In this document: one piece after another, positions 3,406 to 50,900 of the stretch | How the letters are laid out: each line of letters opens with the position of its first letter | Numbering within the stretch: the first letter of the stretch is position 1 | DNA from: Pecten maximus | Taxonomy: Eukaryota | Assembly (NCBI RefSeq): GCF_902652985.1 | Contig: NC_047029.1 | Span: forward strand, 3,410,001 to 3,474,000 | DNA: 64,000 nucleotides | Reading direction: 5' to 3' | Program-made: the position numbers and the translations under genes | Notes under the pieces: generated by a model | The model's database searches: none | What the model saw: only the letters and a program-made list of their open reading frames with translations | Told to the model about the DNA's origin: nothing

Positions 3406-6400
3406 ATAAGGGAATCTGTCCCCATAAAGTCCTTCAGCTTTGAAGGTTCTGTTATATTCCTCTGGTATTGATCTTCATTGAACTGTGTCCTTGAATGACG
3501 AGCTTGTAAACTCCCAGGTAACGATAGATTTTGACAATGTCTGGGCCAGAGACACCCTCCTCATAAATGGCTTTGAAGCAATTTAGAAAATATATTAAAG
3601 TAACATACATGTACATAATAATGTATGCACAGTTATGAGTTTCACAAATTAAACTAAATTTAAAGCAATATACCGTTGGGAAAGTGAATTGTTACATCAA
3701 ATTTTGAGATTGGCATGCCAAAATATATTTGTCTATATCATTGTAAGCAATTCAATTACGCATTCAGATATTTCAGTCAATCTAGCTAGCTAGCTCATGC
3801 ATGTATATTGTCCATTTTACTGTGTGATCTTCTGAAATTAACCTGACATTGTTTTTTAATTAAGAGTTAGATGATTCACAATTCTTTTCTTAAACAATCC
3901 TTGAAACGATAAAGCCAGACAGATTATTAAAATGAAAACTACCTTAATTATTTTGTAAATTTCATATGGAAAACCAATGGAAATTAATCGTGGCTTTAAT
4001 TTTCCACTCATGCATTATCTGATCATAGAACAAGAACAAAGGCTGCTTAATTTCCAAAGGAAATTCCTTAAAGATCCATTTTATTTAACGCTGATTGGCT
4101 GTACAGGTAATACATTTAATTGTGGTATGATGGGACTTCTTGAAAAAAGTAGGATCCATTTCAATTGTGTGTTTAAAGACTTAATCAGAACAGCTGCAGC
4201 ACAAGTCTTGTATAGGATACATATGCTTTTAACTATTTCACTTACCTTGCCATTAAATTCAAAGTCATGTGCCGACATATCATTAGGATATTTCTGTCGT
4301 GAAGATGATGCCTGTTCCTAATATCATATAACATAAATGTACATAATTGTTTGCAGATTTGGATGATTTGAAGCATAGAATTTTCACAACCCCCATTAAA
4401 AATTGTCTACTATATATGTCAATTGTGATGTGTATCAGTCTATTTTCATGATGTATTTATTAAAGAATTACGCAGTGCGTTTGATATATCGTCGAAATGT
4501 TATTTATACAAACATATTGTGGATACCTTCAATACTCAATTTTATCTTATTAAGCCAATTAATTATAAATTTAAAAAGTTATTGAGTCAATTCCGTATGC
4601 AAGGACACAGTCTAAATATTGAATCTGGGCGCTACAATAAAATACCTAGAAGTCAAAGAGTTTGCACAGTTTGTGACAAAAATGACGTCGAGGACGAAGT
4701 ACATTTTGTGCTTCTTTGTCCTGCATATTCTGAACTAAGAAAAACATACATCAAAAAATAATTTAATTTTGCTTGTAACAAGCATTTTCATTGGCTCAAA
4801 AAATTATGTTATCATCTCATAACATAAAAAAATAAAAGGAACTACTTTCAGTTATACCGGAAGTTGACTGTGACGTCAGCGGAGTAATCGTTGTTCACGG
4901 GATTTTGTATTTATCGATGTGTTTTTAAATATCTGGAGTAAAATAAACATGTTATACTTAATGAAAATGTTTCTTATCGTTGTTAATTAAATTATAAGGG
5001 TTAACTGTAATATTCTTTTTACATTATTGAGCAATAACACAAAAAACTGGGGTGTACTCTTTTCATAAACCGCTTCGCGATTTATTCAGAGTACACCCCA
5101 GTTTTTTTGTGTTATTGCTCAATAACGTAAAAAAATATTACAGTTATAACCCTTAAGTATTATTATTCTCGTCCAAGTGTTTATAAATTGATAGAATTAT
5201 TTTCCAGTAAAAGTGTTAAAACCTTGAATAGATTGGGTAAATTTTTGTTACATGCCACTGCAGAAAGAAAAACTCTCCTTGTAAGTAACTAAATTAAATG
5301 CGTTTTGGAAATTATGATCACAGTTTTTATATGTAGTGTTCTTGTATATACATTATATATGTATGTAGAAAGTATGTTATTTATATTGAATAGTACATGT
5401 TTAAATTATGTCGTCATACTGTCATGACGTCATAGGCATGCAATACGTAGACGCTGTAATTGTTATGCATCAGTTACAAGTTTTCAAAAGCAATATGTTA
5501 TTCATTATTATGTGTCTAAATGGAGAAATGAAAATGTAAATATTATTAGAAATAATCTTAGTGTTAATGTAAATAATCTTATAGATATTGGGAATAGAAT
5601 TGTTAGTTCACAAAATGATGTTAATGGTGTTATTGATGATTTTTGTAAACTTGTTAATACATGTGTTTTACCTTATTGTGACGTGCGTAAAGTGAGTGCG
5701 AAAAATGACAATATGAATGTTCAACATAGCTCTAAAAGGTCAGATGATAAGCCATGGTTTACATATGAATGTAAGAGAAAATATTTTGACTATAAACATG
5801 CATTGGGAAACTTCAACTGCTCTAAGTCAGATGAAAATTATCGTATCCTTATAGAAAAAAAGACATTGTACAAAAGACTTGAAAACAGGTTGAAAAGACA
5901 ATATAACAGACATGAAGGTAATATGTTAGATCTGATTCGTAAGAATAACCCAAAACAGTTTTATAAATATTTCTCGAAAACTAAAAGTAGGACAATGCAG
6001 TCTAATTTAAACAATGATGATTTTGGCAATGGTGACATGTCAATTACGGCTGGTGAGACAATTTTCGACGAATTAGATTTACAAATCAGTGAGGATGAAG
6101 TGGTTGCTGCAATAAGAAATCTGAAAAGGAGCAAAAGTTGTAGTGAGGATAATATTTTAAATGAATTTTTTATTGATTGTGAGAAATTTGAGTTGCTACC
6201 ATGTATTACAAATGTCTTCAATAATATTTTTCAGTCTGGCTTTTTCCCAGAATCTTGGTCAAAAGGTTGTATAGTTCCAATTTTCAAAAAAGGTGATATT
6301 GATAATCCGAATAATTACAGAGGTTTGACAATAATAAGCTGTATGGGCAAATTATTTACATCCATTCTTAATAAGAGGCTGATGAAATGGGATAAACAGT

Positions 6401-9119
6401 ATAATGTAATAACGGATGCTCAGTTTGGATTTAAACCTGGTTTTTCTACAGTTGATGCTATTTTTGTTCTGCAAACTTTAGTTAACAAAACATTGAAAAA
6501 TAAAAAAAGATTATACTGCTGCTTTATAGATTATAAAAAAGCTTTTGATTTAATTGATAGAAGCCGTTTATGGTCAAAACTTATAAAACAGGGAATTGAT
6601 GGAAAGATGTTAAAAATAATACAATCTTTATATGATAATGTAAAGTCTTGCATCAAACATAATGGAGTATTGTCAGAATACTATAGAAACACGATCGGTT
6701 TATTCAAAGGAGAAATTTTGTCGCCTATTTTGTACAGTTTATATGTAAATGATTGTGAAATGTGTTTTATTAGAGAGAACTGCCAATCAGTGGAAATTGG
6801 TTTGATCAATCTATTTTTAATTATGTATGCGGATGATACCGTTCTGATAGCAGAGTCACCTCAGTCACTCCAAGAAATGTTAAATGCATTGTATCTATAT
6901 AATAATGAATGGAAATTAACTCTTAATGTTGATAAAACTAAAATCATGATATTTAGGAACGGAGGTAGACTGCGTGACAATGAAAAATGGTTTTATAATA
7001 ATGTAGATATAGAAGTAGTTAATGAATTTAATTATCTTGGAATGTTGTTCAATTATAATGGAAAGTTCAAAAAAACTCAAATTCATGTTGCTAACCAAGG
7101 TAGGAAAGCTTACTTTTCCATAAATAGTAAGTTGAAAAGTCACTCATTTAATATTAAGACACAATATTCTGTGTTTGATACATATATAAATAGTATATTA
7201 GGATATGCAAGTGAAATATGGGGGCATCATAAAGCACCAGACGTAGAAAAAGTACATACCATCTTTTGTAAAAGTTTACTTGGAGTTAATAAATCTACAT
7301 GTAATGATTTTCTTTATTTGGAGTTGGGCAGATTCCCATTATATATTATCAGGAAACTAAAAAATTTTAAGTATTGGCTTAAACTGAAAAGTACTTCAAA
7401 TTGTATATTAAAAGCATGTTTGGAACAGAGAATTGAGTCGAATGATGAATGGAAAATGAACTTGATAAAGTAGGCCTTTCTTATCTCTGGCATGATACTG
7501 CAACTGATTGTTATACGTATAGTGTTATAGAAAATAGAATTAAGGATGTGTATCAGCAAGAAATCATTAATAGAATTAATGCTACATCACGAGGTGTAGT
7601 ATATAAACATTTAGTCGATAATTTTTGTTTACAATTTTATCTAAGTAAGCCCATTGATAGTATTTATAAAAAGTGTCTAGCTAAATTAAGACTTTCGTCA
7701 CATAATTTAAATATAGAGTATGGCAGAAAACATAATGTTCCTAGGGCTAACAGATTATGCGATTGTTGTAATTTAGAGGAAATTGAAGACGAGTATCATT
7801 TTTTACTACAATGTCCATTTTACTCTGATCTTCGTCAACAATATATTAAACATTATTATTACAGAAAGCCAAGTGTTTTCAAATTAGTCAAATTATTAAG
7901 TGTGAATAATGTTAAAGAACTAAATAAAACTGGTAAATTTATCCATTTAGCTTTTAGAAAAAGGGCAGAAAAGGTTAATAGTTAAATATTATTTTGTTAA
8001 ACTAATGAGATGGATAAGCTTACAATATTATGTTGAACACTCTCCGACCATGTAACTGTTTTATTGTATACCTATGCATTTCCATGTTGTTATTTTCACT
8101 TATGGGCCGATAGGTCCTTGGAATAAATTGAACTTGAAATATGCTTTTAACTATTTCACTTACCTTGCCATTAAATTCAAAGTCATGTGCCGACATATCA
8201 TTAGGATATTTCTGTCGTGCAGATGATGCCGTTTCCTAATATCATATAACAAAAATGTACATAATTGTTTACAGATTTGGATGATTTGAAGCATAGAATT
8301 TTCACAAACCCATTAAAAATTATCTACTATACAGATTGAGTCAATTGTAATGTGCATCAGTCTATACATAACTTTATAATCAAAGCTATATCAACTGCAC
8401 TGTACCCAAGCAGCAAAGTCAACCTGCTTAAAATACAGATCAAAAATAAACAAATAAAAAAAAATCAAATTGATACAAAGTATACTTGGTTCTTAAATTG
8501 TGAAAAAATTAGGAATTAGAAGTGGGACTGTTAAGCATAGGAACTTAATTGTTTAATTTCAAATGTGCAATATGAAACAAAAACCTATATAAGACTAATT
8601 AATCTAAGGCCTGTGTTATATTAAACAGGTTATCAATTTATCAAATATGAACCAAGATTCTAAGTTTGTCTAGATAAGAAAGGCATAATTTTTAGTTTTT
8701 GTTGGTTTCATACCTGTAGAATATTATCATTCTTCTCTCTTATGGCTTCTGTATGTAAACTTTCTCTGTGCTGCATACCATTCTTCTCAACATTTACACC
8801 GGTGTACTCTATATCTCTTGGGGTAAAGTTTCTTTCAGTCTGTGTTAAACTGCTTAACCCTGTGTTCTGTGTGGAATGTGTATCCATTTGTGGTACATAT
8901 CCACCAGTCTGCGTAGATAACTCCTCATTCTTCATACCAACTGTCTGTGTAGGGTTCCTATTGCTCTGTGTTTCTCTAGAATTCTGTGAAATTATGTTCC
9001 TGTTTGTCAATATTCTCTCATCTTCCATAGTATCCCGACGGGAACTGGCTGGTGCTTCAACTGCAGCCTTCAGCAACTGGCGTTTGTAGGCCTGCTTTGC
9101 ATACCCACCAAAACTCTCC
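3406..9119 (-). CDS. Unidentified spliced gene, partial model, divergent from MINDY4
   Basis: Exon 9119-8714 (ttttcag acceptor, gtatga donor, open frame ESFGGYAKQAYKRQLLKAAVE...NILQ) joins in phase 0 to a 72-nt exon at 8235-8164 and/or its copy at 4317-4246 (AG/GTAAGT). A further probable exon ends at a GTAAGT donor near 3406, and an upstream donor AAG|GTAAGG lies near 9795. Start, end and product are unresolved. Confidence 0.5.
4221..4443. repeat. Left copy of a ~220-bp direct repeat flanking the LINE block (right copy 8139-8365)
   Basis: ATATGCTTTTAACTATTTCACTTACC...ATCAGTCTAT occurs at both places with scattered substitutions. Confidence 0.92.
4444..5290 (+). mobile_element. 3' fragment of a non-LTR retrotransposon ORF2, interrupted by an insertion at ~4760-5156
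   Basis: HSLNIESGRY..RVCTVC..VEDEVHFVLLC zinc-knuckle C-terminus; the frame resumes after 5157 as YYYSRPSVYKLIEL; paralogous to the 7449-7985 ORF. Confidence 0.8.
4760..5156. mobile_element. Non-autonomous element ending in a long palindrome (~4996-5155), possibly Crypton-like
   Basis: Splits the LINE frame at IKK|YYY. Arms of about 65 bp (AAGGGTTA..GGGGTGTACTCT / AGAGTACACCCC..TAACCCTT). The family label is inference. Confidence 0.65.
5512..8138 (+). mobile_element. 5'-truncated non-LTR retrotransposon (RTE/RTEX-like ORF2 reverse transcriptase), frameshifted near 7450
   Basis: RT motifs PIFKKG..NYRG, QFGF, FIDYKKAFD, ILSPILY, YADD, YLG; C-terminal CxxC..HFLLQC in the 7449-7985 frame; 3' end AATAAATTGAACTTGAA abuts the right direct repeat. 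Confidence 0.93.
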
Positions 9120-9980: not shown

Positions 9981-12900
9981 ATGAATAACTTACGCGTCGA
10001 GGCTATAGCTTCCTCGATTGTTCGAGAATATCTCAGTCGAAAGGTACACGGAATTATATATATTTCCGACCTATTTTTCCGAAGCTTAACCTAGGCTAGT
10101 CGTAGTCCGAATCGAATTTTCTTACGATCTTGGTCTACACACAGGCCTACTGTAGGGTTCGTTAAGGTGACGTGCTATATGATATGGGCCGCACATATGT
10201 CTGTCTACTCCGATTAAGTTAGAGGATGACACGACGAGAAACTCAATCTTATAAATGGTGGTATCGGAGCCAAAATATAGCCAGAGACTTTAGCTACATG
10301 TAGCAAAGTATATAGTGGTCTATATATAAATTAAGCAGATACATAACGTGCAAAGCAGTTGTAAAAATGCGATATCATCACAGAGACATATATATCTGTA
10401 TATATGTCTCTGATCATCAGCAGATCTAGATTTTCTATATTTAATCATTTACGAGCAGAGAATGATCATACACCTATCAATTTGGCCTAGCGTTTATTCA
10501 CTATATTGTTTATTTTATTGAGATTTTTTTTATTTAAACAAAATCAATGGATACCAGTTTTTGGTAAAATTGGTGTACTATTAGGTGGGTAGATTGGGTT
10601 TAAGTTTGGTGTCATAATGAAACCACTCCAGCTGATTTAGATTTTGCATCGATTCGACTATAGTCTAATTAAGTGCTATATAGCTACCACACAGTATTTG
10701 GGAATGTAAGCTGGAGCATCGACTTCACATCATGACATTTCGACCCCACTAGAAGAAACAGCAATTTGCATTGTGAAACAGCTCATAAAGGAAGACACCT
10801 ACATTTGAATTAGTGCACATGTTAATCTGAATTTGTATCTTAATATTACATGGAAATACATTTTAGTATACTGTTGTTAAAACACCTCAAATCTGATGCT
10901 GGAAACTTGAATTTGTGTAAACTAAAATTTAACTTCGTTTAATTCTTCATCTTTGAAATAATATTGTTACTTAAATTTGATCTCTATAGGGTTTGAAAGG
11001 AACCCTTCAGTCTATGGACGAGGAAATGCCAAGGTCTGATGCATGTATCAGTAACCGCCAGGCTTTGATGAAGGAGTTACGAATTGAAAAACTAATGAAG
11101 AAGAATAAGGTAATGTATAATTATAGTTTATGTCATTTAGGAATTTTAAAGGTGCTTGTTTGCTACTTTGTGGAGAGGATATAAACTTCCCATCACAAAA
11201 ATGCATAACAAGTGACATCCATAGTAAGAAAATATATAATTAATAGTAAACAATTTATACAGCCCCCTAAAATGACCACTTTTCAAGACCGAAAGTTACA
11301 TTTAGAGTATATATAGAGACATGACATGGTAGAATGTCTTTGGTATGCAATTAATTAAGGGTTCACCTTCAAATTTTCAGTTGAAAGATCAGAATCTCGA
11401 AATTGTATAGGGCGGTGATAGCATAAAGTATGTAACTTTTACTATTGTATCAAAATATATACACAACATCCTATTCTTGTTTTCTAATGAATTGATCATA
11501 TTTACACTTAGTCAAAGATGTTGCACCATTAAAGAAGGTTCCTGTTTGAATTATTTTCGACCTCCACCCATGATCTATATATACCATGTATAATGCATAC
11601 AAGTAGATTTTTTTCGTCATGCTAGCATATATTGTGTAAGTATTTTAGGTACTGACTACTGTCGCCAATTTACATTTCATGACATGATTGAGTCATGCAG
11701 CAAAATTATTTCTAATAAAATTGTTTTGTTGTGCAGGAGATGTTGGACCCTCTGCGATCTATGATAGAAGTGGTAACTAAATTCTTACTGGAGAGATCTG
11801 AGGGAAACCTTGACCGACCAATTAGCTCTAAGGCTCATGGTCATCAGGACCATAGTCCGGAAGCACAAAACTCCCCAGGAACAGACAAACTGAACTTCAA
11901 GTTTTCCAGTGAGGCAATGGCTGCTGCTTCATCGAAGAGAAAGACAATAGGATCTGCTGCCAGTAGTGCAGGTACGTAGGTGTCTTAAAATGTTGTCATC
12001 TCCGCAGCAATCAGTTCAGGTAAACATTGGGAAATTATCTATTATAAATGATTTTATTTGAAGGTAAAAACTACTTCCTGCTGTGTATTTAAGTCTGGCA
12101 TGGTCTTCTGAAGACATCCACTTGTAGCAGTACCGATTATTATTGTAACAATTTTATCAGGTGTTGGAGAATCACTGCTGACTTTGTAATGTAATCACTG
12201 AATTTTATATATCTTAACATTTCCAAAATAATGAAGTGCTGTTATACTTAAATGTAGTCTAAAAGAACTATTAATAGGGAATACATGGCCTGTCAGACAA
12301 AGAGAGAGAGAGAGAGAAAAAAATATGTTTGAGGGAGATTATGTAATCATCTTGTTTGCATTTCAACCCATACAATTTTCTTCGTAGAGCATCCTCCAGA
12401 ATTTTTATATACAGACCTAAAATTTGGCTTCCAGAATGTTAAGATAGACAACATTTCCAAAATAATTAAGTGCTGTTATACTTGCATTAAATAATGCATT
12501 CTCTGGAATTTTTTTTGGACAGACCAAAAATTTGTCTCCAGAATTTTTTACACATACCAAAAAATTGGCTGTAGATCTAGACTTCAGAATGTTAAAATGG
12601 ATAATCGGTTTTGTTACAGCCCCGACTAAGACAGAGACTGGTGACCTTGTGATAGATGACAACCTGGAGAGTGAGACCGTTTTAGGAGAAGGAAAGTCTG
12701 GTGTCCTAGCCCAGGGTAGTTCTGAAGTCACTCCCTCCACACAAAAAACTCGTCCTCGCTCTTCTAATAAACATCGAGGTCTGTCCGGGCCTGTTACTAG
12801 TAATCTGGATGTAAGTAAGCACTGGAAATTTTACTTTATTTGTATTGTTTAACATCCTATCAACAGCTATGGTCAATTAAAGACGGGTCCTCCTGTTTCC

Positions 12901-15900
12901 AAGATGCATGTTTGTGTTGTGTGTGTGTTTTGGGAGCTGGCTGCGGTGTGTTCCTGAACTACCAACTTATCTCGTGCTACCTCGCTGAAGCATTACAGTA
13001 CTGCCAAAGACAACCAGCAGAACAACTCACCTATCGTATTATACTGCCTACAGGCAAATCGGTTGTCCTACTCCCAAAAATGATGAGAGCTGTAAGCAGG
13101 AGTAAGCCCTGGGAGAGAAATTCAACAAAATATCCAGTCAAATTAAAGTTTCCATTTCAACTGGTGTGCTACAAGTGGCTATACATAGCAGACAGTAAAA
13201 TGGCTGAAAAATCAAAAATGAAAAAAAAAAAATTCAATAAAGAATTTTTCAACATAGCAGTGAATTCTTACTCATCTGCTACAGTATATTAAAGGAGATA
13301 GTCAGAATAATTGGACTAGGGTAACATATTTGAAGTTCACCTAACTGACCATGAAAATGTATAGAGGTCACTACCCATCCACATTGGTTTTTTTCCAGGA
13401 AGTAATTTAAGACCCTGTGTGTCCTTTCGTCCATGCCATTTAGAGTGATTGATTATATTCCATGTTGATTTTGTAACTTATTTCGCAATTGTAAAATAGA
13501 TAAAATTTATAACTTTGGTTTAACTTTTGTCTCCATGCAGGACAGACGGAGGACCCAGCGTTCGCGTCCTATGTCAGGTGTATCCAGGAAAGGAAGTATT
13601 CCATCCTCATCTTCCACTGACAAGGAATCGTCTTCAGTGATATCAAATAACAAGGAACCTTTGTTAGTGACACCAAAAACTGACCTGGAAAGTATAGATA
13701 CACTGATCTCTAAGCCGATAGAGCACCGTAAATCTATACAAAATGTCTTAAATGTTGATACTCCTGTGAAATCTGGGAAGATGAGCCGTCGTCAGAACTC
13801 TTTTGAGAAGGAGGAGACTCACTATAGTGTTGATAAATCAAGTATCAGTAAAAATTCGTCCTCACGGGATTCACAGCCACAGAGGTAGGTAGAATCACAG
13901 CCACAGAGGTAGGTAGTTCAGTGTATACCATAGGTCATAATTAAACAATTGTTTGACTTTACAAGTTTTCCTCTTCCTTAAAATTTTTTCAACAAAATGA
14001 TTTTATTTTTTTTAGTAGGCCTTCCTCTTTTAAATCTACCTCAACCAAAGTTGGTGATGTGGAGATTGGAGATGTGGATGACCTTGACAATGAAGTTTCA
14101 AACCTTGACCTTGGGCCGAGACTTCCTGTAGGACGACCAATTCAAAACCTTGTGGCTGCTCGGCCTATAACTCTACAGACAGCTGTTGTAAGTCTTGTCA
14201 GCTGTTTTGTAATCTTTTTCAGCAGTTTAAAGATATCAAGACATCCAGACATGGTGTCAGGGCCAGAGGAAACTCAGGCTAGCCCTACACCAGACATGGT
14301 GTTGGGTCCAGAGGAAATTTGGGATACTACAGGGTATCATTTGGCTTTATGCTAAGCATTTCATTCTATGCAGCTGTACAAAATAATTGGCATATATGCA
14401 GGGAAGTAATTTTGCAAAAGACTGGTGCAACTACTACAGAAAAAACAATAACTCTCATATGATTCACAATTTGTTTAAGTCAAAAACAATGATATTTTTA
14501 AATCATATATACATGTATGTGCTTAATGGCCCTAATTAGTGGCTTACCTGGTGTCAATGTCATAATTAACAAAGATAAACAATAAACATGTTTCTGTTTT
14601 ATCTTTGTGTCTTATTTACAGAATCTGAAGACGATCATATTTGGCCATGCCAACCAGAACTTTAATGATGAGTGGCGGTACCAGAGCTTTACTTTCTGTG
14701 ATCTTCCTAGTCTCAAATTCGGCATTGTACAGAAAAAGGTCAGATTTAGATATCTAATGCTTGGTTTCTGGCAATAAGATTGAGATTATATATAATCTTA
14801 CGATATTCTCAATAACCAAATTATATAACATTAACTAATTATAAGATCATTAAGATTCATGACTGTAGTATACATGTATGTAATTTATTATGAACTTCTG
14901 TACAATATATGAATCCTACTGTCACAAAGCTAACATGTGACGGGCCATGGTACTTATAGGGTGGACCATGTGGTGTATTGGCAGCTGTTCAGGCCTGTGT
15001 CCTACGGGAGATGCTGTTTGGTGACACTCCGGTACCATTCAGTAGATTGTAAGTAAATTTAGAATAAGTCAACTGTTTTGTAGATTCTATCACTACTGTA
15101 GTGGATTTGTATCTTTATTGTGTTTCAGTCATGAACAGTTGATGTATTTGTATTGTTTATAGCAGTGACCCCAGTATAGACGAGCGTAGTGGCTGCCTGG
15201 CGACAGCTCTGGCACGAATCTTCTGGAGGGCCGGTGAGAATAAGACAGCAGTTGTAGTCCTGTAAGTGGCGCACACGATACACATATAAATATTGACATA
15301 ATTTTTATTATGTTTATAAGGTTTAAATGTCCACATATGATATTGTTGGATACAGAGTTTTGAAGAAAAATATCATCAGTTCCCTAAGTACTGTCTAAAT
15401 GTGTACTGAAAAATCTAGAAGGTCTATATATGTACAGAAAAATCTTAAATGCCTAAGGCAGTATAGAAAAAACTTAAATGCCTAAAGCCGTACTGTTGAT
15501 TTAATATTTTGCTGTAGAAAATAATTTTTTAATGTTCATTCGGAGTGCCTGTTTCAAGTTTATTTTCTTATATGCTGTTACAGTAGCAAAAAGCTACATT
15601 TTGTTTTTAACAGTACCAGATGATCTTTTGTTACTTTATATCATTTCCTATCAGTGAAAAGCTTATTATAAGTGATAGTGACATGGATTGATTGTCTGAA
15701 TTTAAACTGTATTTTCAGTCCATCATGATGTTTTTGTCTTGCTGTTGATCAGTATTCGACTTCAGTTGTTAAATCTAACTTTCAGTCCTTCAGGAAAACC
15801 TCAGTTCCAGACAGGGAAAGGGAAATTTAAACAAGACGATTTAACAGAAACGGTAAATAAAGTCTCTTGTGTTCATTCCTTCATTAAGTCACTGCATCTT

Positions 15901-18900
15901 AATTCGCTGCCAAGGGAAGACATCAATATCAACCCTGCAAACTCTGCCAAAGTCTGAAATACTTTACACCATTTTACAAGGGTCACCAATTAGGGCTTTT
16001 CCAGTAAAACATCTACCCCACCCCAGGACTCCAGTTTTGTTAGGGATATCCCAGTAAAACATCTACCCCACCCCAGGACTCCAGGTTTGTTAGGGTTATC
16101 CCAGTAAAACATCTACCCCACCCCAGGACTCCAGGTTTGTTAGGGTTATCACAGTAAAACATCTACCTCACCCCAGGACTCCAGGTTTGGTTAAGGGCTT
16201 TCCCAGTAAAACATCTACCCCACCCCAGGACTCCAGGTTTGTTAGGGTTATCCCAGTAAAACATCTACCCCACCCCAGGACTCCAGGTTTGTTAGGGTTA
16301 TCACAGTAAAACATCTACCTCACCCCAGGACTCCAGGTTTGTTAGGGCTATCCCAGTAAAACATCTACCTCACCCCAGGACTCCAGGTTTGGTTAAGGGT
16401 TATCCCAGTAAAACATCTACCCCACCCCAGGACTCCAGGTTTGTTAGGGCTATCCCAGTAAAACATCTACCTCACCCCAGGACTCCAGGTTTGGTTAAGG
16501 GTTATCCCAGTAAAACATCTACCCCACCCCAGGACTCCAGGTTTGTTAGGGTTATCCCAGTAAAACATCTACCCCACCCCAGGACTCCAGGTTTGGTTAA
16601 GGGTTATCCCAGTAAAACATCTACCCCACCCCAGGACTCCAGGTTTGTTTAAGGGTTATCCCAGTAAAACATCTACCCCACCCCAGGACTCCAGGTTTGG
16701 TTAAGGGCTATCCCAGTAAAACATCTACCCCACCCCAGGACTCCAGGTTTGGTTAAGGGCTATCCCAGTAAAACATCTACCCCACCCCAGGACTCCAGGT
16801 TTGTTAAGGGCTATCCCAGTAAAACATCTACCCCACCCCAGGACTCCAGGTTTGTTTAAGGGTTATCCCAGTAAAACATCTACCCCACCCCAGGACTCCA
16901 GGTTTGGTTAAGGGCTATCCCAGTAAAACATCTACCCCACCCCAGACTCCAGGTTTGGTTAAGGGCTATCCCAGTAAAACATCTACCCCACCCCAGGACT
17001 CCAGGTTTGTTAGGGCTATCCCAGTAAACATCTACCCCACCCCAGGACTCCAGGTTTGTTAGGGTTATCCCAGTAAAACATCTACCCCACCCCAGGACTC
17101 CAGGTTTGTTAAGGGCTATCCCAGTAAAACATCTACCCCACCCCAGGACTCCAGGTTTGTTAGGGTTATCCCAGTAAAACATCTACCCCACCCCAGGACT
17201 CCAGGTTTGTTAAGGGCTTTCCCAGTAAAACATCTACCCCACCCCAGGACTCCAGGTTTGTTAAGGGCTATCCCAGTAAAACATCTACCCCACCCCAGGA
17301 CTCCAGGTTTGTTTAAGGGCTATCCCAGTAAAACATCTACCCCACCCCAGGACTCCAGGTTTGGTTAAGGGCTATCCCAGTAAAACATCTACCCCACCCC
17401 AGGACTCCAGGTTTGTTAGGGTTATCCCAGTAAAACATCTACCCCACCCCAGGACTCCAGGTTTGTTAAGGGCTATCCCAGTAAAACATCTACCCCACCC
17501 CAGGACTCCAGGTTTGTTAAGGGCTATCCCAGTAAAACATCTACCCCACCCCAGGACTCCAGGTTTGTTAAGGGCTATCCCAGTAAAACATCTACCCCAC
17601 CCCAGGACTCCAGGTTTGGTTAAGGGTTATCCCAGTAAAACATCTACCCCACCCCAGGACTCCAGGTTTGTTAGGGTTATCCCAGTAAAACATCTACCCC
17701 ACCCCAGGACTCCGGGTTTGGTTAAGGGGTACCCCCTATAGAATTTATTGATTCAGAATAAATTACATAGAAGTAGTAGGAAGGTAATCCAACCATGTAT
17801 AGAGGTGATTTATTGTGTAGTCTTGGGGTCAGGTAGTTATTTCAATAGCCATAAGAAGTTTAGAATGAACCAACAAATTAGACAAAGCTACATGCCTTTA
17901 ATTCATTTCCTTCATTGTTAACTTACAGTTGATGATCAACCACTTTAAAACTCATGCAGAACTGAAGAGTTTTGTCACCCAGAATTTGAGTCAGGCGAGT
18001 ATCAGAATTGATGTGTGTTGTATTTTTGTCAAACTGTGACGAAGGAATGGAAGCAGGACTATTAAAGGTGTTACTTTTTCACTTGAATCCACACCAATGC
18101 TACGACTGTACAATTCAAAACAGTCTGAAAAAGAGATTTGGAATACTTATTTATCAAATCTATTACAAAATTTTGTAAAGTTTAAAAATTGTCTAACATT
18201 TCAAGCATATAAATATAACAATCATGCATTGAAAACTAGAAATAACTCTGCCTGTGTTTTGTGTTGACAGTTTGAGCTGGATGGTACAAGTGGAGTGATT
18301 CTGGCTCTGTACTCATGTATCATGTCCAGATTTATGGATTTGTAAGTATCATCGAATATAGTTCGGTGCTATAAAATGTCAAATACCATCAGAGAATACT
18401 GACAAAATAACGAACTTCTTGAAAGTTATTTAAAGGAAATTTCAAATCTCTATATATCTTTCAGTGTATATCGATAAAGGTTATATAATTATATGGTTTA
18501 ATTTATTGGTTTTAAATCCCAATCCTTTTTCTTGTAATTAACAATTCATCAACTTGAAGTTAGTGTTTACTTATGTAAAGATTATATTTCTTACAGAGTA
18601 AGAAGTGATATGGATGAACCATCAGGTAAACTGATGGGAGCCCATGGATACTGTACCCAGGTAAGTCATATGCACCCAGGCATGTACATGTATTATAAGT
18701 AATGTGTTCCCAGGTACAGGTACAGTAATATGTTCCCATGTACATGTAAGTAATGTGTTCCCAGGTACATTTAAGTAATGTGTTCCCATGTACATGTAAG
18801 TAATGTGTTCCCAGGTACATGTAAGTCATGTGTACCCAGGTACAGTAATATGTTCCCAGGTACATGTAAGTAATGTGTACCCAGGTACATGTAAGTAATG

Positions 18901-21900
18901 TGTTCCCAGGTACATGTAAGTAATGTGTACCCAGGTAAGTAATATGTTCCCAGGTACATGTAAGTAATGTGTTCCCAGGTACATGTAAGTAATGTGTTCC
19001 CAGGTACATGTAAGTAATGTGTACCCAGGTAAGTAATATGTTCCCAGGTACATGTAAGTAATGTGTTCCCAGGTACATGTAAGTAATGTGTTCCCAGGTA
19101 CATGTAAGTAATGTGTTCCCAGGTACATTTAAGTAATATGTTCCCAGGTACATGTAAGTGATATGTTCCCAGGTACATGTAAGTGATGTGTTCCCAGGTA
19201 CATGTAAGTAATGTGTTCCCAGGTACATGTAAGTAATGTGTTCCCAGGTACATGTAAGTGATGTGTTCCCAGGTACATGTAAGTAATGTGTTCCCAGGTA
19301 CCGTACATGTAAGTGATATGTTCCCAGGTACATGTAAGTGATGTGTTCCCAGGTACATGTAAGTAATGTGTTCCCAGGTACATATAAGTAATGTGTTCCC
19401 AGGTACATGTAAGTGATGTGTTCCCAGGTACATATAAGTAATGTGTTCCCAGGTAAGTGATATGTTCCCAGGTACATGTAAGTAATATGTTCCCAGGTAC
19501 ATGTAAGTGATGTGTTCCCAGGTGCATGTAAGTGATGTGTTCCCAGGTACATATAAGTAATGTGTTCCCAGGTAAGTGATATGTTCCCAGGTACATGTAA
19601 GTAATATGTTCCCAGGTACATGTAAGTGATGTGTTCCCAGGTACATGTAAGTAATATGTTCCCAGGTACATGTAAGTAATATGTTCCCAGGTACATGTAA
19701 GTGATGTGTTCCCAGGTACATGTAAGTAATGTGTTCCCAGGTACATGTAAGTAATATGTTCCCAGGTACATGTAAGTAATGTGTTCCCAGGTACATGTAA
19801 GTGATGTGTTCCCAGGTACATGTAAGTAATGTGTTCCCAGGTACATTTAAGTAATGTGTTCCCATGTACATGTAAGTAATGTGTTCCCAGGTACATGTAA
19901 GTCATGTGTACCCAGGTACAGTAATATGTTCCCAGGTACATGTAAGTAATGTGTACCCAGGTACATGTAAGTAATGTGTTCCCAGGTACATGTAAGTAAT
20001 GTGTTCCCAGGTACATGTAAGTAATGTGTTCCCAGGTACATGTAAGTAATGTGTTCCCAGGTACATGTAAGTAATGTGTTCCCAGGTACATGTAAGTAAT
20101 GTGTACCCAGGTAAGTAATATGTTCCCAGGTACATGTAAGTAATGTGTTCCCAGGTACATGTAAGTAATGTGTTCCCAGGTACATGTAAGTAATGTGTAC
20201 CCAGGTTAGTAATATGTTCCCAGGTACATGTAAGTAATGTGTTCCCAGGTACATGTAAGTAATGTGTTCCCAGGTACATTTAAGTAATATGTTCCCAGGT
20301 ACATGTAAGTGATGTGTTCCCAGGTACATGTAAGTAATGTGTTCCCAGGTACATGTAAGTAATGTGTTCCCAGGTACATGTAAGTGATGTGTTCCCAGGT
20401 ACATGTAAGTAATGTGTTCCCAGGTACCGTACATGTAAGTGATATGTTCCCAGGTACATGTAAGTAATGTGTTCCCAGGTACATATAAGTAATGTGTTCC
20501 CAGGTACATGTAAGTGATGTGTTCCCAGGTACATATAAGTAATGTGTTCCCAGGTAAGTGATATGTTCCCAGGTACATGTAAGTAATATGTTCCCAGGTA
20601 CATGTAAGTGATGTGTTCCCAGGTGCATGTAAGTGATGTGTTCCCAGGTACATATAAGTAATGTGTTCCCAGGTAAGTGATATGTTCCCAGGTACATGTA
20701 AGTAATATGTTCCCAGGTACATGTAAGTGATGTGTTCCCAGGTACATGTAAGTAATATGTTCCCAGGTACATGTAAGTAATATGTTCCCAGGTACATGTA
20801 AGTGATGTGTTCCCAGGTACATGTAAGTAATGTGTTCCCAGGTACATGTAAGTAATATGTTCCCAGGTACATGTAAGTAATGTGTTCCCAGGTACATGTA
20901 AGTGATGTGTTCCCAGGTACATGTAAGTAATATGTTCCCAGGTACAAGTAAGTTATATGTTTGGTAGGTTTTGTTTTTATGAAGCAAGTATACATACATG
21001 TATGTTTTGCTTTAGAGTAATGATGTTTTTGATGTACAGGACATGGTGAATCTGATAATGACTGGCAGGGCAGTGTCTAATGTGTTCAATGATGTTGTTG
21101 AGCTGGAATCTGGTGACGGCTCCCCTGGCACCATCCTGAAGGGCCCCAACACCCGCTCCGACACAGGCCTGTTATCTCTCTTTGAGCATTATGGATCCTG
21201 CCAGGTACATTTTATTTAATTATTTTCTTAAACATAACTTTTAAATAGGATTACTGTGAAAAACATGTGAAAAACATGTTAAATAGTCCATGCTTCCCTA
21301 TCTTAAGGTTGTCTTGTACAGATTTTATCTGATTATATGTTGACAGGTGGGGACGTACCTGAAGACACCACGTTTCCCTATCTGGGTGATTTGCAGTGAG
21401 AGCCATTTCAGTGTCCTATTCTCTTTGAATAAAGAGTTGGTCAGTAACTGGAAGGCAGAGCGAAGGTTTGACCTATTCTACTACGACGGCCTGGCCAGAC
21501 AGCAGGAACTTATCAAGCTGACCATTGGTCAGTATATATCAGTACTATGATTATCTGGTCATTAGTTCCCAACCAGTGAAAGCAAGGGGACTATTGGTTT
21601 CCTCTCTGTCCGTCTTGTACGTATGTACAGACATATGAACGTAACGCCAAAGTTTGTCACCACTCTCGTGGCTTCATTCTCTGAGGAATTTTGATGAAAA
21701 TTGTACACAATGATTTATATTAAAGGACCATAATATCTCCGACATGTTCGAGTTTCATGGTTTTGGGGTCCAGTTCACTGTCTATTTATAAGGTGGGAGG
21801 GGCGTTCTGGGACATGTATTGCTTTACCCAATATGCTTGTATTTGTTGGTCGATATCATAGCTGGAATGATCTGTCATCAGTTGATGGTACTTGTACCTC

Positions 21901-23039
21901 CACAATGGAATTTAATCAATGTAGGTACAGTGATAGAAATCAGGGCATCTATCCCTGTTGGTGGACAGGTTTAACCATCGCTACTTAACAATAATGTACT
22001 GACCTCATTACCAAACTTTGTTTTTTTACTGTAAATTTATTTTTTCTACCACTACTTAACTTATTGGCAAATAGTTCATTAAACTTGTTAGTATTATGAG
22101 TATATCATGTATTCAGTATCTTAAGTGAATAGTGGTTGTGTGATGTGATTTGTTTGATCTGACATTTTTCATGGGAAATATATGTCTCTATTTTGACATG
22201 AAAGGTGTGTATTTAGTTACCTGGTCTATTGCATTTCTGGATTTCTGTGTTGCAGACACGACAATGAAATACGAAAAAGGAGAAGAGGACTTAGTGCCCC
22301 CAATGGAACACTGCATTAGAACCAAGTAAGTTTTCTTCTTCCAGCTACAACCTATAATACCTTATCACTACATACTCCTTATTAATCCTCTACCAGAAGG
22401 ACTTTTGAACAATTATGTTTCCTCTTCATCTGTCTTGTACGTATGTACTTAACGCCGAAGTTTGTTGGTTCTCTAGTGGTTTCATTCCTTGAGGGATTTT
22501 GATCAAACTTCTCATAACAAAAAAGACTATAGTATACTATATCGGGAAGTTCAACTTTCAGGGTTTTTGGGTCAAGGTTAAGATCACTGTTACTATTTTA
22601 GCAGGGGCTGGCTAGGCACATATATTGCTTTAGTAACAAAAACCCAGTATGTTTCTGCAGTATAAACCTCCACCAAAGTTTTTCTTGAGTAACATTGAGA
22701 TGCTTGTGAGATCAAGACTAATTATTTTTTGTCAGAATTTCATAAATCTCCAAGTGGCTACTTATACTAAGATAACTGTACATGTAGCAGGCTACTTGTA
22801 ATTTCTTGATAGCTTCACTAGAGGCTTGGGATCAACCCAGGTCCTCTGTTTCACTAGTCTGATGTAGAGATGCAGACAAATTGTCCCTAGGTAATCATGG
22901 GTTGGAAGGGAGGGGCAAGTAGTCTACCAGGGTGACGTCAATAGTTTTACTGATTCTGTGGTTTATGTATGATAATTATAATATTTACAGGTGGAAAGGT
23001 TGTGTTGTTGACTGGAATGGAACAGAACCATTGTTATGA
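9981..23039 (+). CDS. MINDY4: Ubiquitin carboxyl-terminal hydrolase MINDY-4 (FAM188B), about 718-720 aa, 17 coding exons
   Basis: Exons: 9981-10043, 10990-11109, 11737-11971, 12620-12810, 13541-13884, 14019(or 14016)-14187, 14622-14738, 14960-15048, 15166(or 15163)-15261, 15786-15852, 17929-17994, 18271-18341, 18597-18660, 21040-21204, 21347-21527, 22256-22325, 22991-23039; all phases join. N-terminus [26 protein letters not shown], catalytic Cys motif [14 protein letters not shown], His motif [16 protein letters not shown]-terminus [20 protein letters not shown]. Confidence 0.95.
15990..17730. repeat. Minisatellite, 49-51-bp unit (TTAGGGYTATCCCAGTAAAACATCTACCCCACCCCAGGACTCCAGGTTTG), about 35 copies, MINDY4 intron 10
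   Basis: Directly visible; the ORFs called here are repeat translations. Confidence 0.97.
18652..20950. repeat. Minisatellite, 25-bp unit (TGTTCCCAGGTACATGTAAGTAATG) with 19-bp variants, about 90 copies, MINDY4 intron 13
   Basis: Directly visible; begins at the exon 13 donor TGTACCCAG|GTAAGT. Confidence 0.97.
21560..21845 (+). mobile_element. Degenerate short HINE-like element (a related copy lies at ~22380-22650)
   Basis: TTAGTTCCC..GGGGACTA start, GTCCGTC microsatellite, GTATTGCTT end; shares TCTTGTACGTATGTAC..AACGCC.AAGTTTGT with the second copy and resembles 42621-42922. Confidence 0.55.
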
Positions 23040-44975: not shown

Positions 44976-47900
44976 TCATGTACGACTTTTCTTTCTCTCC
45001 AGCATCTGATCTAGGAACTGAGTGTAAGCCTTCTTCTGTGGTCCAGAGGCTGGGATAAAATGGCCTCCAGGATGCTGTAATATCACTTTGTCAGTGTAAC
45101 AGGGCAGAAGTTCTTCACTCATCTCTGTAATACACAATACCATCATTTAATTATAATACTATGGATACAATATGAATATCCCATACTTAGTACAAGATTC
45201 TCCAGATTGTTAAATTTCCAATAAATGTTGTCATGCATAATTTAAAAGATACATTAACTGTACCTTTATATATTATTTTACTAACAAGTTTACATATACA
45301 TCGAAAATCCTGTTCATGTTGACTTCTTGACACATTTTCTGTGACCTTGACTTACCTTTCTGTATGACCTTGTCTGTGTCCCCAAACACATGTAAAGAAG
45401 GCAGAGACACTTTCGTCGAGTAGAGATCCTGATGTGGGGACTGACGACTCTTGAACCCTGCAACCAGGATCACAAAATCGAACTGGAATGGTGAATCTGT
45501 AAGAAAGAATTGTAAAGTAAATAAACCATATCACAATATTCAATACCATCCTTAATGACGTATTGATTGGACTTTTAACAGAAATAGAAACAACCATCAC
45601 ACTAAGGGACTATCCCCAAAAAAATATATATCCAATATGACTTACTAAAAACAAGTATGTATGGTGGGTGAATGAGAAAATTTGGCTTACTATATGGTAC
45701 TGTTTGAATTTAATGACTTCTATTGGTGGTCACTTTTTGATGAACTTGGGAGTCATACAGCTGGGTAGATATTTTACTGGAATAGCCCTAACCTATACAG
45801 TACTACAAAATTCTAACTTCTGCTCCAGGGGTTTTGTATCAACTTTCTTACAGTAGATAAAAAGTTACTTACCTGAAGGGTTTTGCTCCCTCAGAGCACA
45901 GATCAGGGACAGAAAAGCTGCTCCCTGACTAAAGGCCAGCACACCATCAAATGGACCCTGTAAAAAACAGAGTGGACTTCAAAGTACATGTATAAATCCT
46001 GTCCTAATTATCTGTAATATGAAGAATCTTGACCTTCAGTCTAAAAGGTGTTCTAACACTACTCCATAGTACGGTGAATTTATAGTCATTAGAATATCAT
46101 GTTCATAACCTTTGTGCAACTTTTACATTTTCCAGTGACTCCTAGTTAAGTTTACCTGTTATTTAATGGCATGGGCTACCTGGTCCAATGACTCCTAATT
46201 AAGTTTACCTGTTCTTTAATGGCCTGGGGTACCTGGTCCAATGACTCCTAATTAAATACCCATTCCTTAGTCGCCTGTGTTACCACGTCCAGTGACTCCA
46301 AATTAAATTTACCTGTTCTTTATAAGCCTGTGCATGTTACCACATCCATGACTCCTAATTAAATTGACCTCTTTAATGGCCTGGGCTACCTCATCAAGTG
46401 ATTCCTAGTTAAGTTTACCTGTTCTTAAATGGCCTAAATTACCTGGTCCAGTGATTCCTAGTTAATATTACCTGTTCTTTAATGGCCTGTGCTACCTGGT
46501 CCAGTGACTCCTAGTTAAGTTTACCTGTTCTTTAATGGCCTGGGCTACCTGGTCCAGTGACTCCTAGTTAAGTTTACCTGTTCTTTAATGGCCTAAATTA
46601 CCTGGTCCAGTGACTCCTAGTTAAGTTTACCTGTTCTTTAATGGCCTAAATTACCTCGTCCAGTGACTCCTAGTTAAGTTTACCTGTTCTTTTATAGCCT
46701 GTGCCACCACATCCAGTGACTCCTTGTAACCTTTACAACAGTCTGTATAGTCCTGAGCCATGTAATAATCATCCTTGCGTGAAAACCACCATCCCATCTG
46801 GTCAGCTAAACGAGAAACAAATATCAAGACTACAGCTCATAAACATCTGAGTTGCTTTAATACTGTCCTCATCTACCGAGTCTATCGATTTTGTATTGGT
46901 TATTTAAACATGCAACCATAAAAGTTCATGTTTCATAGCCTAGATTTCAAACCAAGTGGCCCAGAGGGATATTTCAGTAACTCAGAATCATTTCTATCAT
47001 TTTTGCTGCATTTTCCAACAATGATTTAATCCATATAGGGACCAAATCCTTTCACTCTTTAAGAAGAAGGAATTTAGAAGTTATTTTTGTTTTTGTTTGC
47101 AACATTTCCCCATAGGTCCCCTCTCTCGGGTCCCTAGGGACCCATAACCTCCATTTATACAACATTAAATCTCCTTTGCCTAATAATGCACCAACTACCA
47201 AATTTCATCACAATCCATTTAATCGTTCAGCACAATTAGTGGAGATTTAAAGGATTTATCTCAATTTCCCCAATTTGGGCCCCCAGGTCCCAAGAGAGCT
47301 ACATCCTCTGTATATACATGTACAAATGTACAACATTAGCTCTCCCCTCTCCCATAATGCTCAAGACCAAATTTTTTAAAAATCTAATCAGTCATTCAGG
47401 AATACCCAGGTAGTAGGGATTTAAAAGATTTACCTCAATTAACCAATAAGGCCCCCTCTCTCTGGCCTCAAAGGACCCACACCTCTGTTCATACAACATT
47501 ACATCTCCTTTGCCCAATAATGCTCCAGAACAATTTATATCAAAATCCATTCTTGTAAGATATTCTGTACACCTGTGTATTCTGTACACCTGTTTATTCT
47601 GTGCACCTGTGTATATATTCTGTACACCTGTGTATTCTGTACACCTGTGTATTCTGTACACCTGTTTATTCTGTACACCTGTGTATTCTGTACACCTGTT
47701 TATTCTGTACACCTGTGTATTATGTACACCTGATTCTGCACACCTGTGTATTCTTTACACCTGTTTATTCTGTACACTTGTTTATTCTGTATACCTGTGT
47801 ATTCTGTACACAATACACACGCTTATTCTATACACCTGTGCATTCTGTACACAATACACACTTATTCTATACACTTGTGCATTCTGTACACTTGTTTATT

Positions 47901-50900
47901 CTGTATACCTGTGTATTCTGTACACAATACACACTTATTCTATACACTTGTGCATTCTGTACACAATACACACACTTATTCTGTACACCTGTTTATCTGC
48001 ACACGTATGTATTCCCTACACCTGTATTTGACACACAATTTGTTTCAGAATACTTACCTTGTTTTTCAGGTGTGTCAGTGGCCGTGTCAGCAGACTTATC
48101 TCCCTCCTCTCCTGGCAATGGAGGGACACGATTGGGGGCTGTCACAAACACTGGATAAAACATGACTCTGAGTGTTAACACATGATAAAACATGACTCGG
48201 TGTTAACACACGATATAACACAGTTTTAGTCCTAAACACAACATACTGAAACAGTAGGGATCTGGTGCTTATTTACCAGAATATTAAATTTACCAACTTG
48301 AAAGTATTTATAGGATAAGCTGCATTTTACTCAATATTTTTCCTATGCATTTTGGTTTTTATTTTGGGGGGGGGGGGGGGGGGGATAAGGCTAAAATACA
48401 TTGGGAATCAGGTTGTTTTGCACCTCCCGTTATAAACTAAAACACTACAATGGTCAAATCTTATATCCAATGTATATAACAGAAGCATATTATGTAATCA
48501 TTGTCAAAGTGTAAGTCACACCTGATGCTACCAAGTTAATTAAGGACAAAATTTCAAAACAAATGAAAGTTTGTTTACAGACCTTTGGATAATTAAACTA
48601 TAAATTGTACCTTAAAACGATATAATGGTACATTGTAAGTTGTTCTTAAAATTGATTAAGAATATTTCTGAACTTACATGCATGAATTATGAAGAAGATT
48701 ACTCAAATTTTAATAGACATTCTCCTTCCTACTAGAAATGTTTGACAAGAGTGCCGGTGACAGATAAAACATCTTCACATACCAAGCTGACAGCAAAGGA
48801 GTATTTCTTTTTAATCCTAGTCAGAATACAACCTTACCTAACTCTGCTCGACTTTTAATGATTTTCCGGAATGCGCCTGTTCTCTCCCGAAATGTCTGTG
48901 CATTTTGTCTGGAAAAAAAAGACACATGTTTGATACAAGTATGAGAGTATAATTCACTGCTATAATAGGCAGGACAACTTGACTTTGAAAAGAAAAATAG
49001 CTGACAATCCAACATCAGAGTTATAAGAGTTGTTTCCCTTGAAGTATGAAGGCAATGTCATACATCTAAAGCTATGAATGTGTAAATGTTGAAAAGGAAT
49101 AAAATATTAAATTTCATTATCAGCATTTTACAGGATTATAATTTATTAATGCTCATTTTATTTATATTTTAAATAAAATATTCAACAGAGCCCGTAATGC
49201 ACAGCTCTCCAAAACTGTTACACTATACACAGTGTGTGAACTCTAATTAAAAATATCACTTAAAGGAACCATGAAATAAAACAGTCATACCAGTTTGAAT
49301 TAATGACACCTTCAAGGAGCTTTTTTCATATCATTAATAAAAAGTCATTCAAGGGAAATAACTCAAACACAGATTAGAATGATAGCATGTACCCTTGACT
49401 TCACGAATCATAATAACATAATATATGTTAGGGGGTAACTCTACAGTTGCTACAAACCGTGGCACTTCAGGTGGTCAGTTAATACGACAAGGGAAACAAC
49501 TCTAACACAGATCATAGGTCCTTCTTACTGTACATAACTTAGCATGTATCCTTAACTAAAATATTTGACAAATCACCGTTATAATGTGTAAGGGAGGTTA
49601 TACTCTAATACAGATCATAACTTTTAATCAATACTGTACATTTTGCTTATTTTACAAACAGTTGTATTTAAAATAATAAGTATGTTTTACCTGTATCCAT
49701 GGAGACAGAGAATCTGTAAACAAGAAAACACAGAATAGTAATTTCATCAAATACATGTGCATGGATAAACAGAGAATTAAACAAATTGATGGATACATTT
49801 GTATAAACGAACTGTTAGGTAATGCTATAGATATAACACATTATCATCTTTACACAACAAGTTAATAAAAGTGGTTATAATTTGCAGTCATAAAGATCAG
49901 AAATGACATTTGAACAACCAACTTAATAAACTGAGCAATTGATCACTTAAGTTACGAGGAGATCCCAGATCGTGGGATCTTATATCCCCGGGTCGAGTGA
50001 GTGGTACATTTTCAATGGAATTCAATGGTAAAAGCACATAGGTACATTTTCAATGGAATTCCATGGTAAAAGCATGCATTTTTGCAGTACCTGCAAAATA
50101 TTAATGTATGATATTTAAAAGTTTTATGTAACTTTTCTTCAATGTTTTTTCTCTTTCTTCTGAATTATCTGGTTTGTTGATGTGATGATATTATAGACAA
50201 AATATTACAAAAGTTTTGTTCTTCTATTGTGAACCCCGTAACTCAACACACACACCTTGACAGAGTGAATGAAAGAAGATATAAACAAAATATGACAGGG
50301 AAAAAGACACTAACTTGCTGTCCGTGCTAACAGACTGAGTGACAGAAGAACCAAGAAACGAAATTCAGAAAGTACTGACAATGACTTCCCATGTAAAGTT
50401 TTATATACAGCTATATCATAGCAACAAAGACATCTCAATGCGGTTCATGAATTATAAGGCGTGCACGTAGATATTGGGCCTTTAGCAACCAGCCAATGTC
50501 TTTCTCAACTCCCTTAAGGAGCTTACAGATGGAGCTGCCATTTTTGGTGTTAACAGCTAGCTTACACCAACATTTCTTGCACTGCCCTACCATGAAGTTA
50601 CATATCATGCATACTAAAGTATCTTCTTCAAGGATACAACTCGGTGCACGTGCTGGGACATAAACTATAGAGACCCTTCGGTGACGTACCCTGCGTCCAA
50701 CCACTGGACTATACCTTGCATTGCCTCCATGAAGGCCCCATGTCAGTCATTTTACTTTTCTGATAAGTCCAAAAATAAATCCTAGACTTTTAAAGTGAAA
50801 CCTATACATACTTATGGGATATGACCTTGGCCTTAAGGTAAAAGTACTTCTCCAAAAAAAAGCAATAACAGACTCGTCATGCCAGCAAACTCAGCAAAAT

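Follow-up and report, generated by a model that had tools for sequence, protein, structure and literature searches.

In the stretch of Pecten maximus DNA analysed here (64,000 nucleotides; contig NC_047029.1, positions 3,410,001 to 3,474,000; hereafter, the window), one intron of a gene for a MINDY-3/4 family deubiquitinase is occupied almost entirely by a minisatellite. Based on array structure, assembled RNA contigs, and genome-wide motif counts, we consider it likely that this array arose from the end of the preceding exon and its 5' splice site (donor), that splicing keeps to the first donor, and that the copies are tolerated since the donor lying furthest upstream prevails. Most probably the array itself is functionless. 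The locus belongs to a known type of repeat, to which the lancelet 'mirages' and the human variable number tandem repeats (VNTRs) of F7, CBS, and 6-16 also belong; what is new here is a genome-wide count and the donor bias found in arrays. The elements on which the argument rests are as follows (a slash marks the exon-intron junction).

9981-23039, plus strand: host gene for a deubiquitinase of the MINDY-3/4 family, with 17 coding exons.
18597-18660, plus strand: 64-nt coding exon (PF13898 positions 173-192), the last nine bases of which, TGTACCCAG, seed the repeat.
18658-18666, plus strand: true 5' splice site CAG/GTAAGT, placed by the ends of RNA contigs X3, X4, and X5 and by consensus score.
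18661-18713, plus strand: diverged first two units, a 19-nt unit ending in CAG/GC followed by a 34-nt unit with an in-frame TAA.
18765-20941, plus strand: higher-order duplication (18765-19840 versus 19841-20941), from the unit string and blastn.
20962-21039, plus strand: non-repeat, T-rich intron tail with the real acceptor and the intron's only YTRAY-like motif (21029).
21040-21204, plus strand: next exon (PF13898 positions 193-246), with a GT..AG joint to 21347 in X3 and X5.

The tandem array spans 18696-20961 on the plus strand (period 25, 92.5 copies, 89% matches, score 3530 in Tandem Repeats Finder) and fills the intron (18661-21039, 2379 nt) apart from a tail of ~80 nt, in agreement with a preliminary description of this DNA that had called most of the intron a dense field of donor-like sites. 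Also correct is its claim that the array repeats the exon's own donor, given that the first unit overlaps both the exon end and the donor. Cutting at CCCAG or CCCAT delimits 93 units 3' of the true donor (18661), usually 25 bp long with variants of 19-34 bp. Splice signals are retained in many, not all, units: CAG/GT is kept at 89 of the 93 junctions (73 CAG/GTACAT, 7 CAG/GTAAGT, 9 other CAG/GT), the others being one CAG/GC and three CAT/GT. Six bases further on, 70 units, i.e., most of the long ones, carry a second donor-like site, CAT/GTAAGT, so that the array has ~160 GT sites, more than the earlier figure of about 90 decoys. The perfect CAG/GTAAGT copies are 19-nt deletion units without the six bases that separate the two sites, with their GT at 18935, 19029, 19453, 19572, 20111, 20554, and 20673; the five listed previously (given at CCCAG) are all real, and the last two had been missed. 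The sequence CAGGTAAGT is present eight times in the intron, which are all of its plus-strand occurrences within the window. A repeat that holds its own seed many times is not enrichment per se, and the question of chance was put genome-wide.

Unit variants recur in blocks, and a 1.1-kb block has been doubled, its halves sharing 95.5% identity over 1106 columns (15 mismatches, 35 gap positions). The unit belongs to this locus alone: when the 918-Mb genome was searched for it, with a result that is a lower bound, 24 matches came from here and six weak ones (75-78% identity) from two other places. As this search gave just two weak look-alikes outside the locus, a mobile or dispersed satellite family was rejected. 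One look-alike (L012) is a long AGGTAC-rich array; the other (L011 3450-4700, G000:C13, plus strand) has an acidic exon-like stretch with a decayed array, rich in AG/GTAAGT and CAG/GTACAT, at most ~60 nt behind it.

Joined by their coordinates, the 17 exons of the host gene give a single open frame of 719 aa with one terminal stop. Four exons around the array match PF13898, with E from 1e-27 to 0.05 (the two short ones are weak, E 0.04-0.05), and they lie at consecutive profile positions (148-169, 173-192, 193-246, and 248-306). We take the N-terminus of the protein to be MINDY4-like. The RNA data are assembled contigs aligned at the array flanks (X3 and X4 from study P2, X5 from study P3), and five exon joints of the gene plus two further loose ends are found in them. 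In three of four runs, from two studies, contigs X3, X4, and X5 pass from 18660 directly to the exon start at 21040, and record position 1775 of the X3 contig (2823 nt) matches on both sides of the junction. The X6 contig ends at 18649, before the donor, and is hence uninformative. The upstream joint 18341 to 18597 (GT..AG) is present in all four runs. In X1 and X8 the acceptor exon is uncovered, and the X1 matches are those of a dispersed repeat. The region 18668-18695 was covered in none of the four runs, an absence of intron cover that was not taken as proof. Since the flanking exons are consecutive in PF13898 and joined by RNA contigs, donor 18660/18661 is real, and the dominant RNA is spliced at it. 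A small leak to the decoys may exist alongside and would be compatible with the contigs, which drop rare forms.

Donor 18660/18661 is the sole site with a 7/7 consensus among the 16 donors of the gene. The donor used at the end of the next exon (21204/21205) is CAG/GTACAT, a 9-mer identical to that of 73 array units, which lends these units credibility as donors in this animal. Predicted pairing with the U1 5' end is -13.7 and -12.9 kcal/mol for the perfect decoys and -12.1 kcal/mol for the true site; these decoys are thus predicted to pair at least as well as the true site, and strength is not what singles out the first donor. Structural masking of the perfect decoys was rejected as well. A 300-nt piece of the array folds with z = -4.67 relative to dinucleotide shuffles, a control that destroys the repeat, and among 200 arrays made by repeating a shuffled unit, 137 fold equally well or better; majority units are predicted to be unpaired at 0.32-0.38, i.e., they are less open than the perfect decoys. 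With strength and structure failing to explain donor choice, position remains.

No alternative donor in the array yields the full enzyme. The intron read in frame stops at codon 14 (TAA, 18700-18702, inside the 34-nt second unit); any decoy from 18714 onward brings in this stop, and splicing at the GC copy (18680) would put 19 extra nt into the RNA and throw it out of frame. A rare slip to a decoy would accordingly run into the TAA or a frameshift, and such RNA is likely degraded by nonsense-mediated decay.

The origin of the array was likely a short tandem duplication across the exon-intron junction, with subsequent growth by slippage and unequal exchange. A duplication placed in this way would leave the exon and the first donor intact and confine every copy to the intron. 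Probably the first donor is preferred as the sole site that closes the short (64-nt) exon behind a strong acceptor, and by analogy with human F7 the choice could be made by exon definition, on a first-come basis, or by 5'-to-3' scanning. Loss of the GT in the copy nearest the true donor (CAG/GC, 18680) and the 274 nt between the true donor and the first perfect decoy may both aid the first site.

The closest relatives are found in lancelets and humans. Mirages have been reported as minisatellite-like duplications of lancelet exon-intron boundaries in Adh3, the globins BflGb6 and BflGb9, troponin C, and PGBD5 (PMC3087553, PMC3902484), and the features of mirages tested here are all seen at the MINDY-3/4 locus (a boundary-spanning unit, minisatellite size, partly kept signals, and splicing at the authentic site in the dominant contig). 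In both cases an invertebrate tandem repeat lies across an exon-intron boundary with several examples in one genome, numerous units, but not every one, keep AG/GT, the observed RNA is normally spliced, and turnover is block-wise. The 25-bp unit falls within the 10-72 bp described for Adh3, and the 19-34 bp variants lie inside the 10-160 bp span described for the lancelet cases (PMC3087553). Unlike the reported lancelet globin mirages, with 3-6 copies, the array has 93, and unlike mirages as described it carries two donor-like sites per unit in a mollusc host; genome-wide counts are given here, and none was found in the available portions of the lancelet reports (PMC3087553, PMC3902484).

In humans, intron 7 of F7 contains a 37-bp VNTR, and related minisatellites are described in 6-16 (IFI6), CBS, LMNB2, and PDGF (PMC1557585). 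According to that report, 50 F7 constructs showed the pseudo-sites to be functional and the most upstream site to be chosen, with some use drawn only by pseudo-sites of perfect consensus, and LMNB2 and PDGF have the same arrangement with use of the first site. This work makes the earlier view that the choice of the correct donor is open an overstatement, as the arrangement has been published and dissected for F7 (PMC1557585). The array shares with the human group an exon end and donor in the first unit, pseudo-donors downstream, and use of the most upstream site. Unlike F7, described as having 4-8 identical non-consensus pseudo-sites, it has 93 units, a true donor of perfect consensus with seven equal copies, and a nearest copy that has lost its GT. 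For 6-16 and CBS, use of two pseudo-sites besides the first site is reported; the contigs here, which would not reveal it, show no such use. A further likeness is to human tandem repeats linked to splicing (spl-TRs; PMC10078293), in that an intronic tandem repeat lies beside a splice junction and its length could shift splicing; spl-TRs are defined by an association between genotype and splicing, whereas the present locus is known from sequence and contigs.

Several observations weigh against an array that is merely tolerated behind a dominant first donor. The perfect-consensus pseudo-sites of F7 drew some splicing, and the nearest pseudo-sites are reported to be used in 6-16 and CBS (PMC1557585). 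The seven full-consensus decoys are predicted to be accessible (unpaired 0.70-0.78). The contigs lose rare forms and derive from other individuals of unstated array length, and they are only presumed to be RNA, though their GT..AG joints argue for it. Finally, if arrays were merely tolerated, the donor motif should be on a par with the controls, yet the donor 8-mer stands in tandem triples 4-9 times more frequently, and this excess implies that something beyond neutrality acts at genome scale.

The excess was measured as triples of an 8-mer (spacers 8-30 nt) per single occurrence, in which matches do not equal arrays. The donor 8-mer AGGTAAGT stands in tandem triples in 6028 of 59377 occurrences (10.2%), compared to 819 of 58024 (1.4%) for control TGAATGGA, 935 of 37177 (2.5%) for AGGAAAGT, in which the GT is broken, 434 of 39704 (1.1%) for TGAAAGGA, and 728 of 35931 (2.0%) for GACGTTTT. 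The genome-wide enrichment that the preliminary description had proposed to look for is therefore seen at the level of the motif. The acceptor 8-mer TTTTGCAG is found in triples in 175 of 40172 occurrences (0.44%), below the controls; these triples stem mostly from two dispersed repeats, and a single acceptor 8-mer is a thin basis for a donor/acceptor asymmetry. Triples of AGGTGAGT number 4200 versus 1464 for the reversed motif (totals without single counts). Other spacer classes gave 844 donor versus 129 control triples and 1162 versus 86, and longer spacers gave 11641 versus 827. Counted as distinct arrays, nine donor arrays were found in the first 8.65 Mb, versus 11 control arrays in ~117 Mb, two of them within the same 8.65 Mb. 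Arrays with three perfect donor copies would number roughly 1000 genome-wide, as extrapolated from lists of the first 100 matches.

The density of minisatellites in this genome is very high: arrays with units of 10-120 bp account for 23% of the 864 kb sampled (L051-L130 plus the window; 236 arrays), so some of them must start at donors. In a shuffle test of the units from this sample the excess is only modest, with a donor-like site (≥5/7) in 45 of 236 units versus 31 ± 5. In one array behind a CaMKII hub exon (L149, G000:C1:43138800-43139700, minus strand), AG/GTAAGT has changed to AGGAAAGT in runs of units, and decayed donors thus appear in the control search. Literature searches on the motif TACATGTA returned nothing relevant, and no genome-wide count of donor-spanning arrays was found in the literature searched, which was mostly open-access, supplements aside.

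To compare array starts with exon ends, we used 34 distinct donor-motif arrays with unrelated units among the matches listed, together with 11 control arrays (22 ends). A model-scored exon (score >12) ends at the array start in 19 of the 34, versus one of 34 opposite ends (p 2e-6) and two of 22 control ends (p 5e-4), with the qualification that the exon score includes the donor and thereby favours donor arrays, a planted motif alone passing 16.5% of the time. Pfam support, which ignores the donor sequence, was obtained for an exon at nine of the 34 starts and at none of 56 other ends (0/34 opposite, 0/22 control). The families are EGF_CA, PSME4_C, Trypsin (twice), Cupin_8, HYR, FH2, CaMKII_AD, and Nuc_deoxyri_tr2. 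Candidates of at least 20 aa for this search came to 21 from the 34 arrays, 12 from the 56 control ends, and 32 from 64 lone sites; all others were counted as misses, and one sample candidate crossing a tile edge was left out. Further cases are a DMAP1-like exon (PF16282, E 4e-31) whose donor leads into 157 copies of a 17-bp unit (L064-L065, G000:C4:10033181-10036053, plus strand), a Sushi exon with a 46-bp array, and an ephrin-receptor-like exon with a 26-bp pair. Arrays anchored at donors are thus a frequent feature of this genome, and the donor motif occurs in arrays in excess.

Donors, or AG/GTRAGT itself, may be hotspots of minisatellite birth or growth, with arrays at acceptors being purged. 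This possibility, to which we give somewhat less than even weight, would add to tolerance of the array rather than replace it. It draws on the excess of donor triples over both control and acceptor motifs and on the exon ends, Pfam-supported or not, at array starts. Against it, lone AGGTAAGT sites coincide with model-scored exon ends at a rate similar to that of array starts (34/64 versus 19/34, p 0.83) and have Pfam support at a similar rate (10/64 versus 9/34, p 0.28), so that donor position is not separated from the motif itself; only at the strictest exon cut do the two differ (11/34 array starts versus 8/64 lone sites, p 0.03). No exon was detected at 15 of the 34 array starts, some of which adjoin other arrays, and two donor-motif arrays (L046, L050) are antisense to nearby predicted exons. 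The acceptor side of the argument depends on one 8-mer with triples mainly from two dispersed repeats, and the duplications described in lancelets may involve either side of the junction (PMC3087553).

Ordinary donors also show no excess in a small sample. Among 110 ab initio exons predicted at score >16 in the 864 kb (raw false rate ~20%, 26/133), spanning duplications were found at four donors and one acceptor, window included, after exons inside long transposon frames had been dropped. Outside the window, two of 87 predicted donors (one of them in a coding repeat) and one acceptor have such a duplication, and the donor rate does not exceed that of random positions (77/6000, 1.3%; p 0.31) in an 18-mer test that is insensitive, having missed the target donor, whose first units are diverged. 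The control array L164 (G000:C3:693400-694300, plus strand) starts 13 nt behind a strongly scored exon, on the strand opposite its motif, so that arrays can also lie immediately behind a donor that they do not span. The stronger proposition that donors seed minisatellites throughout the genome, with ~1000 perfect AG/GTAAGT arrays, about half of them at exon ends, and a scarcity of acceptor arrays, we regard as rather unlikely. If it were true, a donor-linked mutational process or selection for U1 sites would have to be at work, since tolerance alone gives no excess.

A more direct alternative to a functionless array is a regulatory one, in which a length-variable field of U1 sites tunes MINDY output through unproductive splicing or through protection from polyadenylation. 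The ~160 donor-like sites, seven of them perfect and predicted to be open, would suit such a role, as would the unproductive outcome of all alternatives, which resembles splicing-coupled decay, and many human loci are reported to tie tandem repeat length to splicing (PMC10078293). Nevertheless, we judge regulation improbable. Neither decoy use nor intron cover was seen in the four runs (a weak point, as these are contigs), the unit is private to the locus with block-wise turnover, and lancelet mirages are described without splicing disturbance (PMC3087553, PMC3902484). A U1 guard against premature polyadenylation was rejected because the intron contains no AATAAA or ATTAAA in need of protection, and any tuning of expression by array length could act solely via unproductive splicing.

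It is very improbable that an assembly error accounts for part of the array or of its 1.1-kb doubling: there is a single assembly and the halves are similar, whereas the mismatches and gaps between the halves, the ordered variation among units, and the many unrelated arrays of like build in the genome speak for a genuine repeat. Least probable of all are recursive (ratchet) splice sites, with stepwise removal of the intron, a likeness that had been suggested from the AG/GT juxtaposition (CAG/GT in ~89 units, a perfect donor behind the AG in seven) and that fails on weak acceptor context (unit AGs score 1.7-4.8, median 4.2, versus 4.0-9.8 for the gene's real acceptors, on which the matrix was partly trained), the lack of a polypyrimidine tract or branch-like motif before unit AGs with no YTRAY anywhere in the array, a distance of just 10-15 nt between each AG and the GT before it, a likely origin by donor duplication, and a short intron (2.4 kb). 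Recursive splice sites are known from very long introns.

The array is not the only donor-spanning duplication in the window.

13871-13916, plus strand: second donor-spanning duplication of the host gene, two copies of an exact 24 bp across donor 13884/13885 (the open frame, rather than RNA, places this donor).
46131-46724, minus strand: independent donor-spanning array, 53 bp, 11 copies, the first unit of which spans a predicted exon end.

The predicted exon at the start of the 53-bp array (46684-46805, minus strand, score 16.3) has no Pfam hit, and we presume its gene to be serine-hydrolase-like. In the host gene, a third donor has a decayed two-copy junction duplication of 21 bp (14186-14228, plus strand), and acceptor 15786 has a look-alike 67 nt upstream (2/14 mismatches; 15712-15791, plus strand), possibly an old acceptor-side duplication. 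The gene also contains a GC-AG intron (17995-18270, plus strand, CAG/GCGAGT; joint in all four runs) and a tandem TAGTAG acceptor (14014-14018, plus strand), where either choice is in frame and gives 719 or 720 aa. On the minus strand, a 17-bp array of CAG/GTGTAC type (47561-48025) starts ~25 nt behind another donor-like site. Kilobase-scale minisatellites without a junction anchor lie at 15992-17735 (52 bp), 54005-56135 (44 bp), 1-918 (20 bp), and 36454-37535 (55 bp), and the 52-bp unit is seemingly dispersed, with RNA contigs matching its flank. The regions 5428-7985 (plus strand) and 31082-34150 (minus strand) hold long AT-rich frames that were assigned by eye to a LINE-like reverse transcriptase type.

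Taken as a minisatellite grown from a donor and tolerated behind it, the MINDY-3/4 locus is an extreme but ordinary case, in which the first donor prevails over dozens of copies further downstream, including seven perfect ones. Elsewhere in the genome, the ends of EGF, trypsin, formin, CaMKII, PSME4, cupin, HYR, and DMAP1-like exons are starting points of donor-motif arrays whose units are unrelated to one another. Software for gene prediction or read mapping may put donors in the wrong place in genomes of this kind. If seeding by donors were genome-wide, the first-come donor rule could be tested on a ready-made panel of hundreds of unrelated arrays. Should the donor-over-acceptor bias hold with annotation, the anecdotes from humans and lancelets would become a testable genome-wide rule on minisatellite birth and donor choice.

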